A stretch of DNA of 15,014 nucleotides from a virus. Below, in pieces: positions 678 through 14,771 of this stretch. The stretch is from the UHGV virus genome UHGV-0136760; one strand, given 5' to 3'. The translations under genes and the position numbers were made by a program. Positions within the stretch are counted from its first letter, which is position 1. Each line of letters starts with the position of its first letter. The notes under the pieces were generated by a model. The model was not told the origin of the DNA and did no database searches. It saw only the letters and a list, made by a program, of their open reading frames with translations.

Positions 678-1283
678 TTAAGGTGTCAAATCAAGCGCCA
701 TCTTATAGAGCGTCATTTGGTCGGCATTGTGCCGTATAAAATCACTCTTACCGCCTACCTTTCCATCAGCATGAACGGGTACCAGCCAGGGATACTGTGT
801 CCGGACTTCTGCTGGCGCTGCATGTTGGTGATGCCATTTGCACAAAGGGAGGACATATTTATGTGCATCTGCGACTGTCCTGCCAAAAATGTGATGCAGG
901 GAGATGTGTGGACTATGCTTGCCATGCAACTGGCACGCAATACACGGTAAGGTGGCAATGGCACCCTGTATTCTGCGTTCTTCCGCTGTCAGTGAGCGCC
1001 CTTTTAGTCCGCGTGATGCACGTTTGGTTACTGCCACCTTTTTTACTTCCCCGGCAGAAGCCTTGCTCATAGCTTTCTCTTTTCGGCGTTCCTCTGCCTT
1101 CCTGACTGCTTCAATTTTTTCCTGACGATATTCAGGTGAAGCCAATTTTTCACGTGTGCGCTGATACTGGCGCTGTGCTCTCAAACGCTGTTTTTCCCGT
1201 TGTGATTCTCTCCACTCAGGATCGGACAATTTCTGTAGCGCTTTCTGGCGCTGCTTTTCCCACAGAGACAGTTTTTCTTTCAT
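678..1283 (-). CDS. HNH endonuclease, Ref-like (phage P1 recombination enhancement function family)
   Basis: 201-aa ORF. The N-terminal half is a highly charged K/R/E/Q-rich region; the C-terminal half carries an HNH/zinc-finger signature (CIACQLHGKHSPHISLHHIF ... LPLCKWHHQ). Assignment by motif recognition only. Confidence 0.65.
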   Translation of the reverse strand: MKEKLSLWEKQRQKALQKLSDPEWRESQREKQRLRAQRQYQRTREKLASPEYRQEKIEAVRKAEERRKEKAMSKASAGEVKKVAVTKRASRGLKGRSLTAEERRIQGAIATLPCIACQLHGKHSPHISLHHIFGRTVADAHKYVLPLCKWHHQHAAPAEVRTQYPWLVPVHADGKVGGKSDFIRHNADQMTLYKMALDLTP

Positions 1284-4303: not shown

Positions 4304-4597
4304 ATGAGTCAAGGTAACGGTGACGGAGCTGCAAAGTGCAGAATCTCCACTTGTTTGATTAATGACAGAAAAATAGAACCGTGCGCGGCGCTGGCACAAT
4401 CTCTGGAGCAGGATGCTGAATACACGACGCGAAAAGGTCTGCTGAAATACAAAATCTATAACCATGAATTAATTCATTCACAAGACCTGATCATGCTGCG
4501 GTCTGGTGAATTTTCTAAATCGCCTATTCGAGTTTCATTTTGCCCGTTCTGTGGTGAAAGTCTGAAAACGTGGGAAGCGGAGGCAACCAGTGAATAA
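4304..4597 (+). CDS. hypothetical small Cys-containing protein (97 aa)
   Basis: ORF with cysteine pairs (CRISTC ... CPFCG) suggesting a zinc ribbon. Its 3' end overlaps the start of paralog copy B by 8 nt. Confidence 0.5.
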   Translation: MSQGNGDGAAKCRISTCLINDRKIEPCAALAQSLEQDAEYTTRKGLLKYKIYNHELIHSQDLIMLRSGEFSKSPIRVSFCPFCGESLKTWEAEATSE

Positions 4598-5234
4598 CCG
4601 CTTTTACATGATGTGCTTGCGTGAAACTGTGGGTAATAACGCCTCATTCCATTGCCATAACGGCAATGGTTACAGTTCTGATATCGATCGCGCTCATGTT
4701 TACACGCTGGAAGAAGCCCAAAAAGCCTGGAATTGTGGACGAGATATCGATCAGCCTGTTTGCGCTGATAGCGTGGATGCAATGGCTGTGTGGCACGTTG
4801 ATTGCCAGTACATCCCTACAGAAAGCCTGATTGAGTCAGATTGCACTGCGTATGTGGCCTACAAAAAAGGTAGCTGGAACGGCAACGATGTTTACTGGCT
4901 TCAACACGGTGGATTGCCAACAGATGACTTCAGTAAAGCGACCATCTTTAGCGTCGCCAACAAAAACGAACCAGGAATAGTTTGGTTGCCATTTTCCATT
5001 GCTGATGCAGCAAAGCGTCGGACGTTCAATATCAATAACGTTAACCGCAGAACAATGGTTCAGGGCGCAGGTTTGGTCATGCCTGACTGGTTGAAAGAGC
5101 AGAACAGAAGAAAGAAGTCGCGAAGCGGGAAGGTGCGTTGGAATTGTCCGCATTGCGGAAAAATAACCTGGCAGTACAGCCCATATGATTTTGAAGGCTG
5201 TAGTGATTACAACTGTGAAGGATGGCGAGAATGA
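4590..5234 (+). CDS. hypothetical protein with C-terminal zinc-ribbon, paralog copy B (GTG start)
   Basis: 214-aa ORF, same length and same C-terminal CxxC...CxxC motif as 1846..2490. The central part is identical at the nucleotide level; the ends are diverged. Confidence 0.65.
   Translation: MNNRFYMMCLRETVGNNASFHCHNGNGYSSDIDRAHVYTLEEAQKAWNCGRDIDQPVCADSVDAMAVWHVDCQYIPTESLIESDCTAYVAYKKGSWNGNDVYWLQHGGLPTDDFSKATIFSVANKNEPGIVWLPFSIADAAKRRTFNINNVNRRTMVQGAGLVMPDWLKEQNRRKKSRSGKVRWNCPHCGKITWQYSPYDFEGCSDYNCEGWRE
4749..5017 (+). repeat. 269-bp segment identical to 2005..2273
   Basis: See paired repeat feature; offset between copies is 2744 bp. Confidence 0.75.
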
Positions 5235-5839
5235 CAATTGACTATCAGGCACTGCGAGATGCGGCAGAACGTGCAATTCCAGCAATGGAACGCCTGTTAA
5301 TGTTGCCAGTTGATGATGATTTGTTAAGTGAACAGGAACTTAAAGATTACGGTGTGGATATTGATGCGCTCAACGCCTTCAAATTTCTGACCGGACCAGA
5401 AACCGTGCTGGCACTACTGGATGAGATCAACGCATTAGAGGAAGCGCGTATCAACGATGTTTGCCGTATTGCGGAACTAACAAAACAACTGGAGTTGGCA
5501 AAATCAAAACTCAACGAGCAGCGTGAGTATTACGAAGGTGTTATCTCGGATGGAAGTAAGCGCATAGCAGAACTGGAAGCGCGGGGAATAAAACCAGCCA
5601 AAGGTGAAGTTCTGGTCGTTGTATCTGGTTTTACTGGTTGCGGAAAAAGCGCCATTGCCGGGGAAATAGAAATCGCGATGAAGGCTATTGGTGTACCGGT
5701 TCAGTGGACTAATGGCGATGCGGAAAAGCGCATGACAGGAGCTGACTGGCTGACAGCGATTGAGATGTACAAACCAACAGTGCGCATCGTGGAAGTTAAT
5801 GTGCCACGCGCCGCTGGCATTCGCATCAAAGGAGAGTGA
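5231..5839 (+). CDS. Ead/Ea22-like protein with P-loop-like motif
   Basis: N-terminus MTIDYQALRDAAERA is typical of the Ead/Ea22-like family of lambdoid early-left accessory proteins. Contains GFTGCGKS, a Walker A-like motif. Start taken at the ATG at 5231, overlapping the upstream stop (ATGA). Confidence 0.6.
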   Translation: MTIDYQALRDAAERAIPAMERLLMLPVDDDLLSEQELKDYGVDIDALNAFKFLTGPETVLALLDEINALEEARINDVCRIAELTKQLELAKSKLNEQREYYEGVISDGSKRIAELEARGIKPAKGEVLVVVSGFTGCGKSAIAGEIEIAMKAIGVPVQWTNGDAEKRMTGADWLTAIEMYKPTVRIVEVNVPRAAGIRIKGE

Positions 5840-5840
5840 G

Positions 5841-6596
5841 ATGATTCACTACCACGGTGGGCCTATTACTCCTGATACGTGCGCAATGAGAGCATGGAAA
5901 GGGCGACATGCGTTTATCAGTTTTGCGCATTCAGGCCAGATCAATCTCGCGGCTGAATACTGTCAGTCGTTCGCGCTGGACAACGGTGCATTCACCGCCT
6001 GGAAAGCAGCTGGCAAAAACAAAATCGACTGGAGCGATTACTACGAGTTTGTTGCTCGCTGGAAGAATCACCCAGGATTCGATTTTGCCATTATCCCGGA
6101 TGTTATTGATGGCGGAGAGGAGGAAAATGATGCGCTTCTGAATGAGTGGCCTCACGGAAAACTAGCTGGCGTTCCAGTGTGGCACATGAATGAAAGTGAC
6201 GAGCGATTTATTCATTTGTGCAATGAGTTTCCGCGAGTGGCTATCGGTAGTTGTGGCGACTATGACGTAAAGCGCCCAACTCTTGCGGTAGCCAGAATGA
6301 AAGACCTGATTCGTCACATTGTTGATGAGTATGGTCAGCCGGTTACGAAACTACATGGGTTGCGCATGTTAAATCCGCTGATATTCACAAAATTACCCTT
6401 AGCCAGCGCAGATAGTACGAACGTCGCTCGAAACATCGGTATTGATAAAGCCTGGTCTGGGGCTTATGCACCTGCAAGTAAAGAGACACGCGCAGCATTA
6501 ATGGTAGAACGGATTGAGGCACACAATAGCCCTGGTTCTCTTGCGTATTGTGAACAACGCGACCGCTTTGAAATGCAATTGCAACTGGCAGTTTAA
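5841..6596 (+). CDS. TGT-like (tRNA-guanine transglycosylase fold) protein, candidate DpdA-like DNA 7-deazaguanine transglycosylase
   Basis: ATG at 5841 with an AAAGGAGAG Shine-Dalgarno. Three motifs in TGT order: LDNGAF (compare TDSGGFQ), VAIGSCGD (compare AVGGLAVGE) and ADSTNVARNIG (compare DCVMPTRNARNG). The protein is shorter (251 aa) than bacterial Tgt. Confidence 0.5.
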   Translation: MIHYHGGPITPDTCAMRAWKGRHAFISFAHSGQINLAAEYCQSFALDNGAFTAWKAAGKNKIDWSDYYEFVARWKNHPGFDFAIIPDVIDGGEEENDALLNEWPHGKLAGVPVWHMNESDERFIHLCNEFPRVAIGSCGDYDVKRPTLAVARMKDLIRHIVDEYGQPVTKLHGLRMLNPLIFTKLPLASADSTNVARNIGIDKAWSGAYAPASKETRAALMVERIEAHNSPGSLAYCEQRDRFEMQLQLAV

Positions 6597-7030: not shown

Positions 7031-7579
7031 ATGACCACTATTACCAATAAGAAACAGTATCCCAGCGAGCAATATCTTAATGAGCTGATCACCAACATAG
7101 AGTTTGCTGCAAGGGCACCAGTTGAAGTCGTGAGAGCGATGGCAGCAGAGCTACAGAAGCGGCGCGAAGCTGATAGTGCAGAACCTGTAAGCCAAACTTA
7201 CAAGTTGCCAGTTAATACACCTTGCCAAGATGCGCCAGCCCATATCTGGCTGCAAACGGCTGGAGTATGGCCAGAAGATGGCGAGTTAAGCGAATTAACG
7301 TGGTGCAGCCACAATCAGCACCATGATGACACGCTATATGTTCGAGCTGACCTTGTGAATGGCAACTATCCGGTAACTCCGGATGGTTGGATAAGCTGTA
7401 GTGAGCGAATGCCCCCTCAAGATGATTGGATTTTAATTTATTCAAAGCACGGCGAGTATATGGCAGGACAGGTACAAGGGGAATACGTGGAGTTGAGCGA
7501 CGGCACTTTATCGTGGTTAGGGAACGCCTTGTACTGGATGCCACTACCAGAGCCGCCGCAGGAGGTTAACCGTGGCTAA
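7031..7579 (+). CDS. hypothetical protein with C-terminal DUF551-like domain
   Basis: ATG at 7031 with a GGAGAG Shine-Dalgarno. C-terminal region GWISCSERMPP...WMPLPEPP matches the phage DUF551 signature. Confidence 0.55.
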   Translation: MTTITNKKQYPSEQYLNELITNIEFAARAPVEVVRAMAAELQKRREADSAEPVSQTYKLPVNTPCQDAPAHIWLQTAGVWPEDGELSELTWCSHNQHHDDTLYVRADLVNGNYPVTPDGWISCSERMPPQDDWILIYSKHGEYMAGQVQGEYVELSDGTLSWLGNALYWMPLPEPPQEVNRG

Positions 7580-7853
7580 CCTGCAACTTGCCGTCAAAGG
7601 TGAATACTTCGATGCCATGATTCGCGGAGAGAAAACGGAAGAGTATCGCTTGTGTAATGGCTACTGGAATAAGCGAATCATGTTCCGGGAATATGACCGC
7701 CTGATTATCACAAAGGGATATCCGAAGCGCGACGATTCCAGTCGCAGAATAGACGTCCCGTATAACGGATATGAAATCAAGACAATCACACATCCGCACT
7801 TCGGTGATAAACCGGTAAAGGTGTACGCGATAAAGGTGAATATCAATGGCTAA
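7572..7853 (+). CDS. ASCH/DUF3850-like small protein
   Basis: GTG start with a GGAGG Shine-Dalgarno. N-terminal LAVKGEYFDAMIRGEKTEEYR resembles the ASCH-domain beta-barrel motif. Overlaps its neighbours at both ends. Confidence 0.5.
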   Translation: MANLQLAVKGEYFDAMIRGEKTEEYRLCNGYWNKRIMFREYDRLIITKGYPKRDDSSRRIDVPYNGYEIKTITHPHFGDKPVKVYAIKVNING

Positions 7854-10447: not shown

Positions 10448-10699
10448 GTGTCAGATCGAAATATAGCAGCTAAAAGCCAGGAAGAGCGAGACAAGGTGAA
10501 CGTAGACCTTGCCGCCAGCGGCGTTGCTTACAAAGAACGGCTGAATATACCTGTGATTGCAGAGCAGGTGGCCCGTGAGCAACCGGAAAACCTGCGCGCC
10601 TATTTCATGGAACGGCTACGGCACTACCGGAAGTTAAGCCTCCAGTTGCCAAAAGGGAGCGATCCGGTGTATCAGAACGAGGATGCACCAAAAAAATAA
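10448..10699 (+). CDS. hypothetical protein (83 aa), GTG start
   Basis: Strong AGGAGG Shine-Dalgarno about 7 nt upstream of the GTG. No recognised domain. Confidence 0.55.
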
Positions 10700-10822: not shown

Positions 10823-11212
10823 ATGGGCTTCCCTTCTCCTGCGGCGGATTATGCAGAGAGCCGCATTTCTCTTGATCAGCAACTAATCAGACATCCTTCC
10901 GCGACCTACTTCATGCGGGCGGCAGACAGCCATCACCGTGAGGGAATATTGCAAGGTGCTTTGCTGGTGGTTGATTCCTCACTTACTCCGGTTGATGGTT
11001 CACTGCTTATATGCGCTATGGAGGGTGAATATCGCATAAAGAGATACAGGAAGTATCCGCGCCAGCACCTGGAGGATTTAAGCACCGGGAAGAAAGAGGC
11101 GTTACCAGTAGATGACGATGGATGCACGGGCAGTAATGCTGTGTTTGGTGTGATCACTCATGTCATTAATGATGCCCGAAGTGGGGAGTTTGATTATAGA
11201 CCTGTGATTTAA
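10823..11212 (+). CDS. UmuD'-like protein (S24 LexA/UmuD peptidase fold lacking the N-terminal arm; P1 HumD-like)
   Basis: Starts MGFPSPAADYAE, i.e. at the position corresponding to the UmuD to UmuD' cleavage site. Colinear with E. coli UmuD' through to FGVITHVI. GAGGTAAAA Shine-Dalgarno. Confidence 0.8.
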   Translation: MGFPSPAADYAESRISLDQQLIRHPSATYFMRAADSHHREGILQGALLVVDSSLTPVDGSLLICAMEGEYRIKRYRKYPRQHLEDLSTGKKEALPVDDDGCTGSNAVFGVITHVINDARSGEFDYRPVI

Positions 11213-11257: not shown

Positions 11258-12352
11258 TCATTCAATGATTTTTTCGGCTGTCAGCCAGCTAATTTCGTGC
11301 CTGTCTTTCGGCGGTTTTAGCATGTGAGCATATTCAGCGACATGCTCCCACGGAATTGTTTTTGCCCACTCAACGATAGCATTGTGATCTGCAGTGAAGA
11401 GTGGAATAGTGTGCGATTTCAACCATTCTAATGTCGTGACGCCATGTTTTTTGGCGTGGTGCTGCGCATGATGCCGGGCTATCACTCGTAATGGCATTGT
11501 CCATTCACTACCATCAGGCATCGAAAAGCGCATTGTCTTCGGCATATCTGATTCAAGAACAGCCTCCCTAATACCAGGGAACTCACCAAGAATCATACGA
11601 CGATAGTCATCACTATTTCGCCCGCCATACCTTTCGGCAAAATGATCAAGATATTCTTGGGTAATAAATGGTGAATCCTCCGCACTCAGCTTAATGGCTT
11701 TATATACACCACTCGGATTATCTTCAGCTAAAGCACGTCCATGATGTGAATCATAAAAAAAGCCTATTTCCTCTGGTGACGGAATTGAAGTGAGCAATAT
11801 GCGTGAATCACCACTAGTCATGCTTGCCCACACAATGCTGTATGCCCGATCGCTGATATGTGCGGAATCCACAATAATGAATAAAAGATGGTCGGCGTAG
11901 TGACCTGCAATGCTATCTTCATAGTTAAGGCGGTAGTTACAAAAGCACATTCCCCAAAATTCATTGAACATCAGACCGCTATCACCGACCTTAAAATACT
12001 CAATGATAAAAGGTTGTTTTTTCAGCAATGCCTCCCAACATTGCCACACATATGCAACAATTCCTCTTTTGCAAACATTTGATTTTGGATAAACAATTAC
12101 TGTCCGGGAATCAGGATACATAATCGTATAAAGGGTACTAATAACAGCAAGCACTTGCGGTCGTCCGATCCCATACGGAGTGGTGACAGTAGCTTTTGCA
12201 TTATTGGGCTGTATAGCTTCAACAATTTGTTGTTGCTGGTGGCTTAAATCAATATCAAACAATTCTTTTGCTGCCAGTACCCAATTGTCTTTATATTTCT
12301 CCACCAGCGACAGCCAGCGCGGATCTTTATAAATATTGCTCTTAGTCGCCAT
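11258..12352 (-). CDS. terminase large subunit-like ATPase-domain protein (no nuclease domain)
   Basis: Start taken at the internal ATG at 12352 (MATKSNIYK...), which has an AAGGAAG Shine-Dalgarno and overlaps the upstream stop. Terminase-like motif order: P-loop-like GIGRPQ, Walker B-like LLFIIVDSAH, motif III-like LLTSIPSPEE, then YRRMILGEF. Only 364 aa. Confidence 0.5.
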   Translation of the reverse strand: MATKSNIYKDPRWLSLVEKYKDNWVLAAKELFDIDLSHQQQQIVEAIQPNNAKATVTTPYGIGRPQVLAVISTLYTIMYPDSRTVIVYPKSNVCKRGIVAYVWQCWEALLKKQPFIIEYFKVGDSGLMFNEFWGMCFCNYRLNYEDSIAGHYADHLLFIIVDSAHISDRAYSIVWASMTSGDSRILLTSIPSPEEIGFFYDSHHGRALAEDNPSGVYKAIKLSAEDSPFITQEYLDHFAERYGGRNSDDYRRMILGEFPGIREAVLESDMPKTMRFSMPDGSEWTMPLRVIARHHAQHHAKKHGVTTLEWLKSHTIPLFTADHNAIVEWAKTIPWEHVAEYAHMLKPPKDRHEISWLTAEKIIE

Positions 12353-13115: not shown

Positions 13116-13778
13116 TCACTCCACAACAAACCAGTCACAGGCCAGCAGGTCGCCAACTGAAGGCACCCACGGAACAACTACACCTTGTGCATTTTTTAAG
13201 GCGAAATAAGCACCATACGGAACGAGGTCGCCGGGGAAATATCCCTTAATGGCTTCCATTCGTGCCGGGTGCTGTCCTTCAGGAACCAGCCAGCAGAATT
13301 GGTCTTCGCCGTTCCACCCGCGTCGAGCAACTTTCTTGCCATCCTTCATCCACATCAGCGCGTCAGAAAAGTCGGCTGCTTCAAGGTCGATTTCTTCTTG
13401 TAGAGTAGCGATACCGCCAGCAGAAATAGTTACGTCCCTGGCTGTAATGAATGTCACCCCATTGTGACCTTCAATGCTGAGCGATACCCCATTTTCGGAG
13501 GCGTCGTTAACCCGGCTATAGCATTTTTCAAATGCTTTCTCTGGCACATAGACCAGATAACCATTTTCAGCAGTGACGAGATATCCTCCTATTTGCGGTC
13601 GGAACTTTTCCAAGAACACACCATCAACACGAAGCGTCATTCCTTTTGGCTCCACGACTTCGATGCTGCCAAAAATGGGCGCATAAGCTTTGCCGACAAT
13701 AACAATATCTTTGATTTTCGATGCCCGAATGATGCTGTGGCATTTGTATTTGGGGAACACCTGAAAAGTGCTGGCCAT
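13116..13778 (-). CDS. two-domain protein with C-terminal DUF2829 (Tad2-like) domain
   Basis: C-terminal ~90 aa (FSDALMWMKDGKKVARRGWNGEDQFCWLVPEG ... VVPWVPSVGDLLACDWFVVE) matches the DUF2829 signature. The N-terminal ~125 aa is an unrelated domain. GAGGAAGG Shine-Dalgarno. Confidence 0.6.
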   Translation of the reverse strand: MASTFQVFPKYKCHSIIRASKIKDIVIVGKAYAPIFGSIEVVEPKGMTLRVDGVFLEKFRPQIGGYLVTAENGYLVYVPEKAFEKCYSRVNDASENGVSLSIEGHNGVTFITARDVTISAGGIATLQEEIDLEAADFSDALMWMKDGKKVARRGWNGEDQFCWLVPEGQHPARMEAIKGYFPGDLVPYGAYFALKNAQGVVVPWVPSVGDLLACDWFVVE

Positions 13779-13792
13779 AATCCTTCCTCTAC

Positions 13793-14287
13793 TTAAAACT
13801 TTGCGTACTGAAGCGGTGTACGCTTGATTTCAACGCGGCCTTCCGATGTGCTACCAAAGCCACCAGCACCACGCTCCGTTTCGTTGAGTTCCTCAACCTC
13901 GACTAGTGAGACTTGTTCAACACGCTCAAAAATACCTTGCATGACAGCCATTCCAGGCTTGAGACAAACGCCTTCCCCGCCGGGATCAGTAATCAGTTTT
14001 GCCATGATTTCGCCGCGATAATCGGAGTCGATAATTCCTACGCAGTTAGCCAGGCGAGTATGTTTTTTGCAGCCCAATCCGGATCGCGGATAGAGTTTCA
14101 GACACCAGCCGGGCGGGATCTCCATAGCCAGTCCGGTATACACCCACCAGCTTGAGGAAATTGCACCATTGCTATCGACGCATGGTGTTATTTCAACAGC
14201 CTCAAAATCCATTGCTGCCGATCCTGCGGTGGCATAGAACGGCAGTTTTGCACCAGGATGCAGGCGCTTCACTTTTACGTTAATCAT
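13793..14287 (-). CDS. dut: dUTP diphosphatase (trimeric dUTPase)
   Basis: Start taken at the internal ATG at 14287 (MINVKVKRL...). All recognisable dUTPase motifs present: YATAGSAAMDF, PRSGLG, GIIDSDYRGE and RGAGGFGSTS. Overlaps the upstream gene by 8 nt. Confidence 0.85.
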   Translation of the reverse strand: MINVKVKRLHPGAKLPFYATAGSAAMDFEAVEITPCVDSNGAISSSWWVYTGLAMEIPPGWCLKLYPRSGLGCKKHTRLANCVGIIDSDYRGEIMAKLITDPGGEGVCLKPGMAVMQGIFERVEQVSLVEVEELNETERGAGGFGSTSEGRVEIKRTPLQYAKF

Positions 14288-14771
14288 GCTTCTTTGCTCT
14301 TTTGGTGAAGGTGTAAATTCGACGTTTAATATGCGGGGCAGTCGGTACGGATACGTTTGTGGATTCGATAATGCCTTGCTCTTCAAGAGAGCGAACGGCA
14401 CGCAGGAACTGAGACGCATCGCCGCCACCGGACAGCCAGAATTTACGGGCGTAAATGCTGCCGTTACGGATAATTTCAGCAACGACACGAGACTGGGTTT
14501 GTGTTTCACGATAGGCAAACAGTTGCCGGGCTTCTTCCGGCGTAATAGCCAGTTGATAGCCTTTCCCCTTATGGGCGCGAAGAAAACCAAACGACACCAG
14601 GTGTTTTAGTTCCCTGCGCGTAGTCTCATAACCGTATTCCTGTATCTGGAGATTGAGATCGGCGGGCTTTAGCCATGCTTCCGGCGACTCAGTAAGAAGC
14701 GCCAGCAACTTACCGGATAGCTCAGGGGAGGAAGACGGGTAACAGTTAAGAGATGGGTAATAGTGTTTCAT
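14280..14771 (-). CDS. hypothetical protein with winged-helix-like segments (163 aa)
   Basis: ORF translationally coupled at both ends (ATGA overlap upstream, 8-nt overlap with dut). Helix-turn-helix-like stretches (LKHLVSFGFLRAHKGKGYQL; FLRAVRSLEEQGIIES). Confidence 0.55.
   Translation of the reverse strand: MKHYYPSLNCYPSSSPELSGKLLALLTESPEAWLKPADLNLQIQEYGYETTRRELKHLVSFGFLRAHKGKGYQLAITPEEARQLFAYRETQTQSRVVAEIIRNGSIYARKFWLSGGGDASQFLRAVRSLEEQGIIESTNVSVPTAPHIKRRIYTFTKRAKKHD

Follow-up and report, generated by a model that had tools for sequence, protein, structure and literature searches.

The DNA under study is a 15,014-nucleotide stretch of the virus genome UHGV-0136760 (the window), which carries on its plus strand, at 5841–6596, a gene related to dpdA, the phage gene for a DNA-modifying transglycosylase. 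The open reading frame (ORF) is intact, running from ATG 5841 through 251 codons to the stop TAA at 6594–6596. Reading from the sequence, we place a ribosome-binding site, AGGAGAG, at 5830–5836 (+), inside the last codons of the preceding ea22-like gene and four bases ahead of the ATG. A mechanical ORF list offers a longer frame from TTG 5760, which we rejected as the gene; ATG 5841 is taken as the true start because every homologue begins at the same MIHYHG. Three motifs punctuate the protein: LDNGAF at the end of strand 3 (5976–5993, + strand, residues 46–51), VAIGSCGD in the glycine-rich loop after strand 6 (6237–6260, + strand, residues 133–140) and ADSTNVARNIG at the end of strand 8 (6408–6440, + strand, residues 190–200). 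They lie exactly where an earlier note on this DNA had put them when it likened them to the motifs of tRNA-guanine transglycosylase (TGT) and proposed a TGT- or DpdA-like enzyme that inserts 7-deazaguanine into DNA. Between them, on the same strand, are PDVI after strand 4 (6096–6107), which holds D87, and two histidines, H115 on strand 5 (6183–6185), a predicted second base-reading residue, and H172 on strand 7 (6354–6356), the predicted hydrogen-bond partner of the nucleophile.

To place the protein in a family, we compared it with phage proteins. It matches phrog_887, named 'queuine tRNA-ribosyltransferase', with an E-value of 6e-103, and the same PHROG also takes the DpdA of phage Iggy (5e-86), the DpdA of phage 7-11 (7e-74) and the HK106 protein (9e-102), while E. 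coli TGT matches no PHROG. Iggy is a Pseudomonas phage in which 16.5% of the guanines are dPreQ0, and its dpdA adjoins folE, queD, queC and queE. Pairwise BLASTP gave 36% identity to 7-11 DpdA YP_004782407 (E 9e-33) and 25% identity to Iggy DpdA (E 5e-11), and the latter alignment pairs LDNGAF with LDSGAF, VAIGSCGD with ITIGGMVG and ASADSTN with YSCDSSS. An alignment of 31 family members, 31–94% identical to the window protein, was then compared by hhalign with an alignment of eight DpdA1 proteins (9g, Iggy, Seurat, BA3, RHEph04, Dp-1, Rosebush and phiSM), which returned a probability of 99.65% and an E-value of 4.8e-25 over 167 columns. The PHROG and hhalign matches bear out the TGT/DpdA-like identity that the earlier note had read from the motifs. 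The family is large: at least 7847 proteins match at E ≤ 0.001 in a collection at 90% identity, all of which lack a Pfam domain and are either nameless or labelled 'hypothetical', and an exhaustive profile search matched 1589 clusters at 50% identity. In BFVD, the matches at E ≤ 0.001 that have been given a function by name are all phage 'queuine/queuosine tRNA-ribosyltransferase' entries. Judged from these sequences, the resemblance of the motifs goes far beyond chance and the gene is clearly under selection; that it belongs to the phage DpdA family is highly probable.

We next examined the fold and the active site. AlphaFold models the protein as an eight-stranded beta/alpha barrel (predicted local distance difference test score 82.9, predicted template modelling score 0.83), a minimal TGT-fold TIM barrel. 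D47, D87, H115, H172 and D191 end strands 3, 4, 5, 7 and 8 of the model, respectively, and the loop G136–G139 follows strand 6. Conservation was counted in 104 sequences, the window protein plus 103 full-length proteins that each represent a cluster at ≤50% identity. D47 is kept in 101 of them, D87 in 102, H115 in 101, G136 in 97, H172 in 94, and D191 and S192 in 92 each, so that the five predicted catalytic and base-reading positions are retained in 88–98% of divergent relatives. Within the 31-member alignment the only invariant columns are D47, V113, H172, D191 and S192; after DpdA1 was added, the invariant positions were D47, A50, N96, H115, H172, S189, D191 and S192. Each position has its counterpart in DpdA1, namely D47 in 9g D72 (LDSGAFSA), D87 in the invariant 9g D114, H115 in 9g H141, H172 in 9g H196 and D191 in 9g D215 (CDSSS), and the loop around G136 aligns with ITIGGMVG. 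The two catalytic aspartates that the TGT comparison called for are therefore found, both conserved, in a proper alignment, and all three motif equivalences reappear at aligned places in DpdA1 as LDSGAFSA, ITIGGMVG and YSCDSSS.

Histidine 196 (9g numbering) is present in DpdA and absent from DpdA2 (Hutinet et al. 2019, PMC6884629). The window protein has this DpdA-type histidine, as H172 is invariant and aligned to 9g H196, with DpdA2 itself outside the alignment. No Cys/His cluster follows D191, so the 251-residue protein has no zinc subdomain, and the CxCxxC...H motif of the E. coli TGT type does not occur in it. As far as sequence comparison can tell, the active site is complete, including the DpdA-type histidine. 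By homology, D47 is the predicted general acid/base, F51 a predicted base-stacking or gate residue and D191 the predicted covalent nucleophile, and for the VAIGSCGD loop contact with the incoming base's 7-substituent is predicted. The strand position of H115 in the model suggests that it corresponds to H181 of the bacterial DpdA.

Genes for the supply of a modified base were also sought. None of folE, queD, queE, queC and queF is found in the window or anywhere in NZ_CP069886.1, a complete phage-plasmid of 91.6 kb that encodes a 99.6% identical protein. Divergent relatives on phage contigs likewise have no que or folE genes around them. Because such genes are missing from the window, from the related phage-plasmid and from the vicinity of divergent relatives, we assign the gene to the 'solo' DpdAs, group 3 of Hutinet et al. 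(PMC6884629). These authors split 182 viruses by gene content, and the third and largest group has DpdA only. DpdA entries in their Supplementary Data 1 include those of SPN3UB, BTP1, SfI, HK106, SEN1, SE131, PEAT2 and 7-11.

Our tblastn search of 50,697 phage records found relatives at 98% identity in a Stx1a-converting phage, at 93% in the Salmonella phages BTP1 and SPN3UB, at 68% in SfI, at 36% in HK106 and 7-11, and at 25% in Iggy (its DpdA). The listed accessions for 7-11 (YP_004782407) and HK106 (YP_007151699) are the very proteins matched by the window gene, and the records of BTP1 and SPN3UB each contain one homologous place only. The group 3 phages BTP1, SPN3UB, SEN1, SE131, 7-11, SfI and HK106 thus carry the same family, likewise without que genes. 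At the family level, then, the finding is already known. The earlier note had supposed a function hidden among hypothetical genes, and this does not hold, since near-identical orthologues were named as DpdA in 2019. What the present analysis adds is modest: carriage by a P1-like phage-plasmid, bacterial copies that have gone unannotated, and a complete active site. Hutinet et al. further placed singleton DpdAs of Mycobacterium phages and of gamma-proteobacterial phages in separate clusters, asked whether singleton DpdAs have diverged in function, and called for more study (PMC6884629).

The protein was then set against characterised relatives. In the bacterial DpdA of S. Montevideo (PDB 7UI4), the acid/base role falls to D95, with F99 four positions further along; the base is read by D130 and H181, its 7-substituent sits in the G206/G207 loop that follows strand 6, and the nucleophile is D256. 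Guanine exchange is lost in the D95A and D256A mutants. The window protein shares this layout, with an Asp at the end of strand 3 and a Phe four residues on, an Asp after strand 4, a His on strand 5, a Gly loop after strand 6 and an Asp nucleophile on strand 8. The bacterial enzyme differs in its length of 413–436 residues, its four insertions (Ins1–3 and Ins8) and its structural zinc site, none of which is present in the window protein. DpdA1 (9g, CAjan/Seurat, Iggy, Rosebush, Dp-1) falls in the same PHROG and has the identical set of D, D, H, H and D-S, and neither it nor the window protein has the zinc cluster or a match to the Pfam TGT family. Identity to DpdA1 is only 15–20%, however, and the window protein is 60–130 residues shorter at both ends. 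DpdA1 phages, which replace 0.1–30% of G, possess folE, queD, queE and queC, whereas the window gene has none of them adjacent.

No sequence similarity to tRNA-guanine transglycosylases proper (bacterial TGT, archaeosine TGT and eukaryotic QTRT1) could be detected. The window protein also lacks the N-terminal lid, the CxCxxC...H zinc site and the tRNA-binding C-terminal domains of TGT, and its substrate is presumably DNA. Cap10 of type IV CBASS (PDB 9NTN) resembles it in having no zinc site, unlike TGTs and the bacterial DpdA, and the His about 20 residues before the nucleophile recalls, in our reading, the H226/D248 pair of Cap10. Peculiar to Cap10 are its binding of a deazaguanylated CD-NTase and its being encoded with the QueC-like Cap9, and no such neighbours stand at the window gene. 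The sequence affinity of the window protein is to phage DpdAs, not to Cap10.

Taken together, we consider it probable, at roughly 0.6, that the gene encodes a solo phage DpdA, a DNA-guanine transglycosylase that would use a 7-deazaguanine made by the host. The chemistry is proposed from the conserved Asp/Asp/His/His/Asp set, and it has been demonstrated for the bacterial DpdA, 9g DpdA and DpdA2. By homology, the minimal 251-residue barrel would take guanine out of double-stranded DNA and put a free 7-deazaguanine base in its place. D191 would attack C1' of the target deoxyguanosine to give an intermediate in which enzyme and DNA are covalently joined, with D47 protonating the leaving guanine and then deprotonating N9 of the incoming base. 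D87 and H115 may read the base at its Watson–Crick edge, the G136–G139 loop may hold its 7-substituent, and H172 may orient the nucleophile D191. As the element has no preQ0 pathway, the base would have to come from the host, presumably from the enterobacterial queuosine pathway (FolE, QueD, QueE and QueC to preQ0; QueF to preQ1). The gene lies within an early accessory block that is non-essential, namely the Ea22/exo-xis region in lambdoid and P22-like prophages and, in the window, a variable block of a P1-like phage-plasmid. The likely outcome is that the element's own DNA is marked sparsely, after replication and probably at specific motifs, which would blunt some restriction enzymes.

A lone dpdA gene drawing on host preQ0, as the earlier note had envisaged, has precedent in 9g dpdA expressed in E. 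coli and in the queD-dependent dpdA2 of nt-1. With 9g DpdA alone, E. coli plasmid DNA contained 790 dPreQ0 per million nucleotides (PMC6884629). DpdA2 of nt-1 alone gave 926–1607 per million nucleotides and none in a queD deletion strain, and DpdA2 of VH7D inserted host preQ1 at 2765 per million nucleotides. The bacterial DpdA modifies <0.1% of G yet supports a restriction-modification system.

Several results weigh against a solo DNA-modifying DpdA. The window protein has no match in Pfam or NCBIfam even at an E-value of 10 and none among PDB sequences; the PADLOC DpdA model leaves it unmatched, and recognises 9g DpdA only marginally. Two family profiles searched against Pfam, NCBIfam and PDB sequences likewise found nothing relevant, and a comparison by hhalign with the one E. 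coli TGT sequence gave no match. The empty Pfam and PDB-sequence searches do not discriminate, however, because the bona fide Iggy DpdA gives the same outcome. Structural comparison by Foldseek with the PDB is topped by the alpha subunit of tryptophan synthase and returns mostly generic TIM barrels, which is not discriminating either. The loop after strand 6 reads GSxGE in the window branch and GGMVG in DpdA1, and the base specificity may therefore differ. Furthermore, the bacterial DpdA requires the ATPase DpdB, whereas no partner is evident for the window gene, and no dpdB- or dpdC-like neighbours are found in the window. As to modification itself, phage 7-11, the nearest tested relative, contains 50 dADG per million nucleotides, equal to 0.02% of G, and the solo-DpdA phage Orion shows no modification, though its host has no preQ0 (PMC6884629). 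Later papers cite only the 7-11 measurement for the DpdA-only group, and our literature search found no functional test of a solo DpdA from a temperate enterobacterial phage.

The 7-11 and Orion values lead to the best-surviving alternative, that the protein is a DpdA homologue with negligible DNA modification in its natural host, a mobile accessory gene of little or no effect on restriction. We give this a minor but real share of the probability. Besides the two phages, the sporadic occurrence of the gene speaks for it: it is present in 204 of 5426 complete E. coli genomes (~4%), and the gene itself is covered in only four of the 15 P1-like plasmids listed as best matches. E. coli QueF converts preQ0 to preQ1, a drain on preQ0 that would favour the same view. 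Against this, the retention of the catalytic residues in 88–98% of the 103 divergent clusters, together with the 1589 clusters at 50% identity, indicates selection for catalysis, and a low bulk level, such as the bacterial DpdA also shows, would fit motif-specific marking.

Somewhat less probable is an active TGT-fold enzyme whose target is not the element's own DNA and whose role would be in taking over the host, in anti-defence or in excluding superinfecting phages. The targets proposed are host tRNA, a protein tagged with 7-deazaguanine (as with Cap10 in type IV CBASS or with the Qat system) and the deazaguanine-modified DNA of competing phages, the Queuovirinae among them. The missing zinc site and the His about 20 residues before the nucleophile, both as in Cap10, are consistent with this, as is the near absence of DNA modification in the tested solo-DpdA phage. 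The PHROG 887 and hhalign matches, however, point to DpdA1, whose activity on DNA has been demonstrated; no QueC-like or CD-NTase neighbour was found at the loci examined; a bare 251-residue barrel has no tRNA-binding domains; and the lambdoid and P22-like copies lie in the early-left operon, which is expressed in lytic growth.

A related reading, which we regard as unlikely, holds that the lone DpdA of temperate phages and phage-plasmids is a prophage-encoded defence or anti-defence function and not one of bulk anti-restriction. It would act on superinfecting Queuovirinae DNA (putting the base in or taking it out), on host DNA or tRNA, or on deazaguanylated defence proteins. The grounds named are Cap10 as best structural match, the barely modified tested solo-DpdA phage and the strictly conserved active site. 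Finally, a generic TIM barrel unrelated to TGT and DpdA with motifs arising by chance, to which the empty Pfam, NCBIfam, PDB-sequence and E. coli TGT comparisons and the tryptophan synthase alpha match would lend themselves, is effectively refuted: the protein matches characterised phage DpdAs significantly, both pairwise and by profile, all its active-site residues align strand for strand, and Iggy DpdA equally lacks Pfam TGT and PDB-sequence matches.

If a solo DpdA does modify DNA with a host-made base, the consequences would reach beyond this element, as solo DpdA genes are common, including in prophages of pathogens (Stx-converting phages and Salmonella BTP1). Should one gene plus the host queuosine pathway suffice, it would be a cheap epigenetic shield for many temperate phages and phage-plasmids, with consequences for restriction, CRISPR targeting and the nanopore base-calling of such DNA. 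For E. coli, it would also mean that a single gene could serve as a tool for deazaguanylating DNA at specific sites. The window gene offers a direct test of the question raised by Hutinet et al. on the divergence of singleton DpdAs.

The surroundings of the gene were analysed for the nature of the element. The window represents a variable block in a P1-like phage-plasmid and encodes a Ref nuclease, a DUF4406 protein, a metallophosphoesterase, a DUF968 protein, a Hot-like protein, an S24 peptidase (HumD-like), a dUTPase and a Tad2-like protein. Backbone genes of the P1 type are those for the Ref RecA-dependent nuclease (678–1283, minus strand), the Hot-like homologue of DNA polymerase III theta (10448–10699, plus strand), the HumD-like S24 peptidase (10823–11212, plus strand) and the dUTPase (13793–14293, minus strand), and because of these four we assign the window to a P1-like or D6-like phage-plasmid. 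The closest DNA is found in non-mobilizable E. coli and Shigella plasmids of 80–93 kb at 55–65% coverage, and 65% of the window is the most that any record in the collections covers. In this backbone (Ref, Hot, HumD-like, DUF968) the window gene differs from the group 3 genes of gamma-proteobacterial phages, which are carried by lambdoid or P22-like prophages or lytic phages. Of the E. coli copies, most show ≥99% nucleotide identity, and most lie in lambdoid prophages of the chromosome, with an Ea22-like gene on one side and xis/int on the other; NCBI annotates the bacterial copies as 'hypothetical protein'.

Directly upstream of the dpdA-like gene lies the ead/Ea22-like gene (5222–5839, plus strand; Pfam Ead_Ea22, E 1.3e-21), whose stop TGA occupies 5837–5839. 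BTP1 and SPN3UB share the arrangement of the E. coli prophages, with an early accessory region and an Ea22-like gene adjoining. Such a gene is a frequent neighbour, found immediately upstream in the E. coli prophage as well as in BTP1 and the phage-plasmid, but these neighbours share only their ends. The conserved C-terminal ...AGIRIKGE of the otherwise mosaic upstream genes overlaps the dpdA ribosome-binding site, which suggests that the shared end is a recombination junction with which the gene appears to travel. The Ea22-like protein was considered as a conserved partner and rejected, as its insert of ~55 residues with a Walker-A-like GFTGCGKS is absent from the BTP1, SPN3UB and E. coli prophage neighbours. 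ASCH/PUA-like folds are able to read modified bases, and the 93-residue ASCH-like protein encoded at 7572–7853 (plus strand) is 80% identical to the 'ASCH domain-containing protein' whose gene in BTP1 follows the dpdA homologue two genes downstream. None of the other loci examined has this gene, and we rejected it as a partner as well.

A relative 43% identical to the window protein, from metagenome contigs (P0150 on L019–L021), lies directly downstream of, and nearly abuts, a gene for a DUF4942 protein of 570–590 residues. In plasmid NZ_CP066033.1 a site-specific DNA methyltransferase falls under the same match. These cases hint that a solo dpdA is at times accompanied by other genes for DNA modification.

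Elsewhere in the window, a 214-residue gene of unassigned function (phrog_2457, with C-terminal CPxCG...C motifs) is present in two plus-strand copies, at 1846–2490 and 4590–5234; their proteins share 93% identity, and their first 300 nucleotides ~90%. The copies bracket a block made of the metallophosphoesterase, the DUF968 gene and a 97-residue ORF. A 357-residue ORF on the minus strand (11258–12331) matches phrog_5902 (E 3e-163; function unassigned) and also, weakly and over part of its length, the terminase large subunit (phrog_2, E 9e-09), and is annotated as hypothetical in related plasmids. The 220-residue protein encoded at 13116–13778 (minus strand) matches Pfam Tad2-like (Thoeris anti-defence 2-like, DUF2829; E 2.7e-22) in its C-terminal half and is a candidate anti-Thoeris sponge; NZ_CP069886.1 also has a separate gene annotated as Tad2 family.

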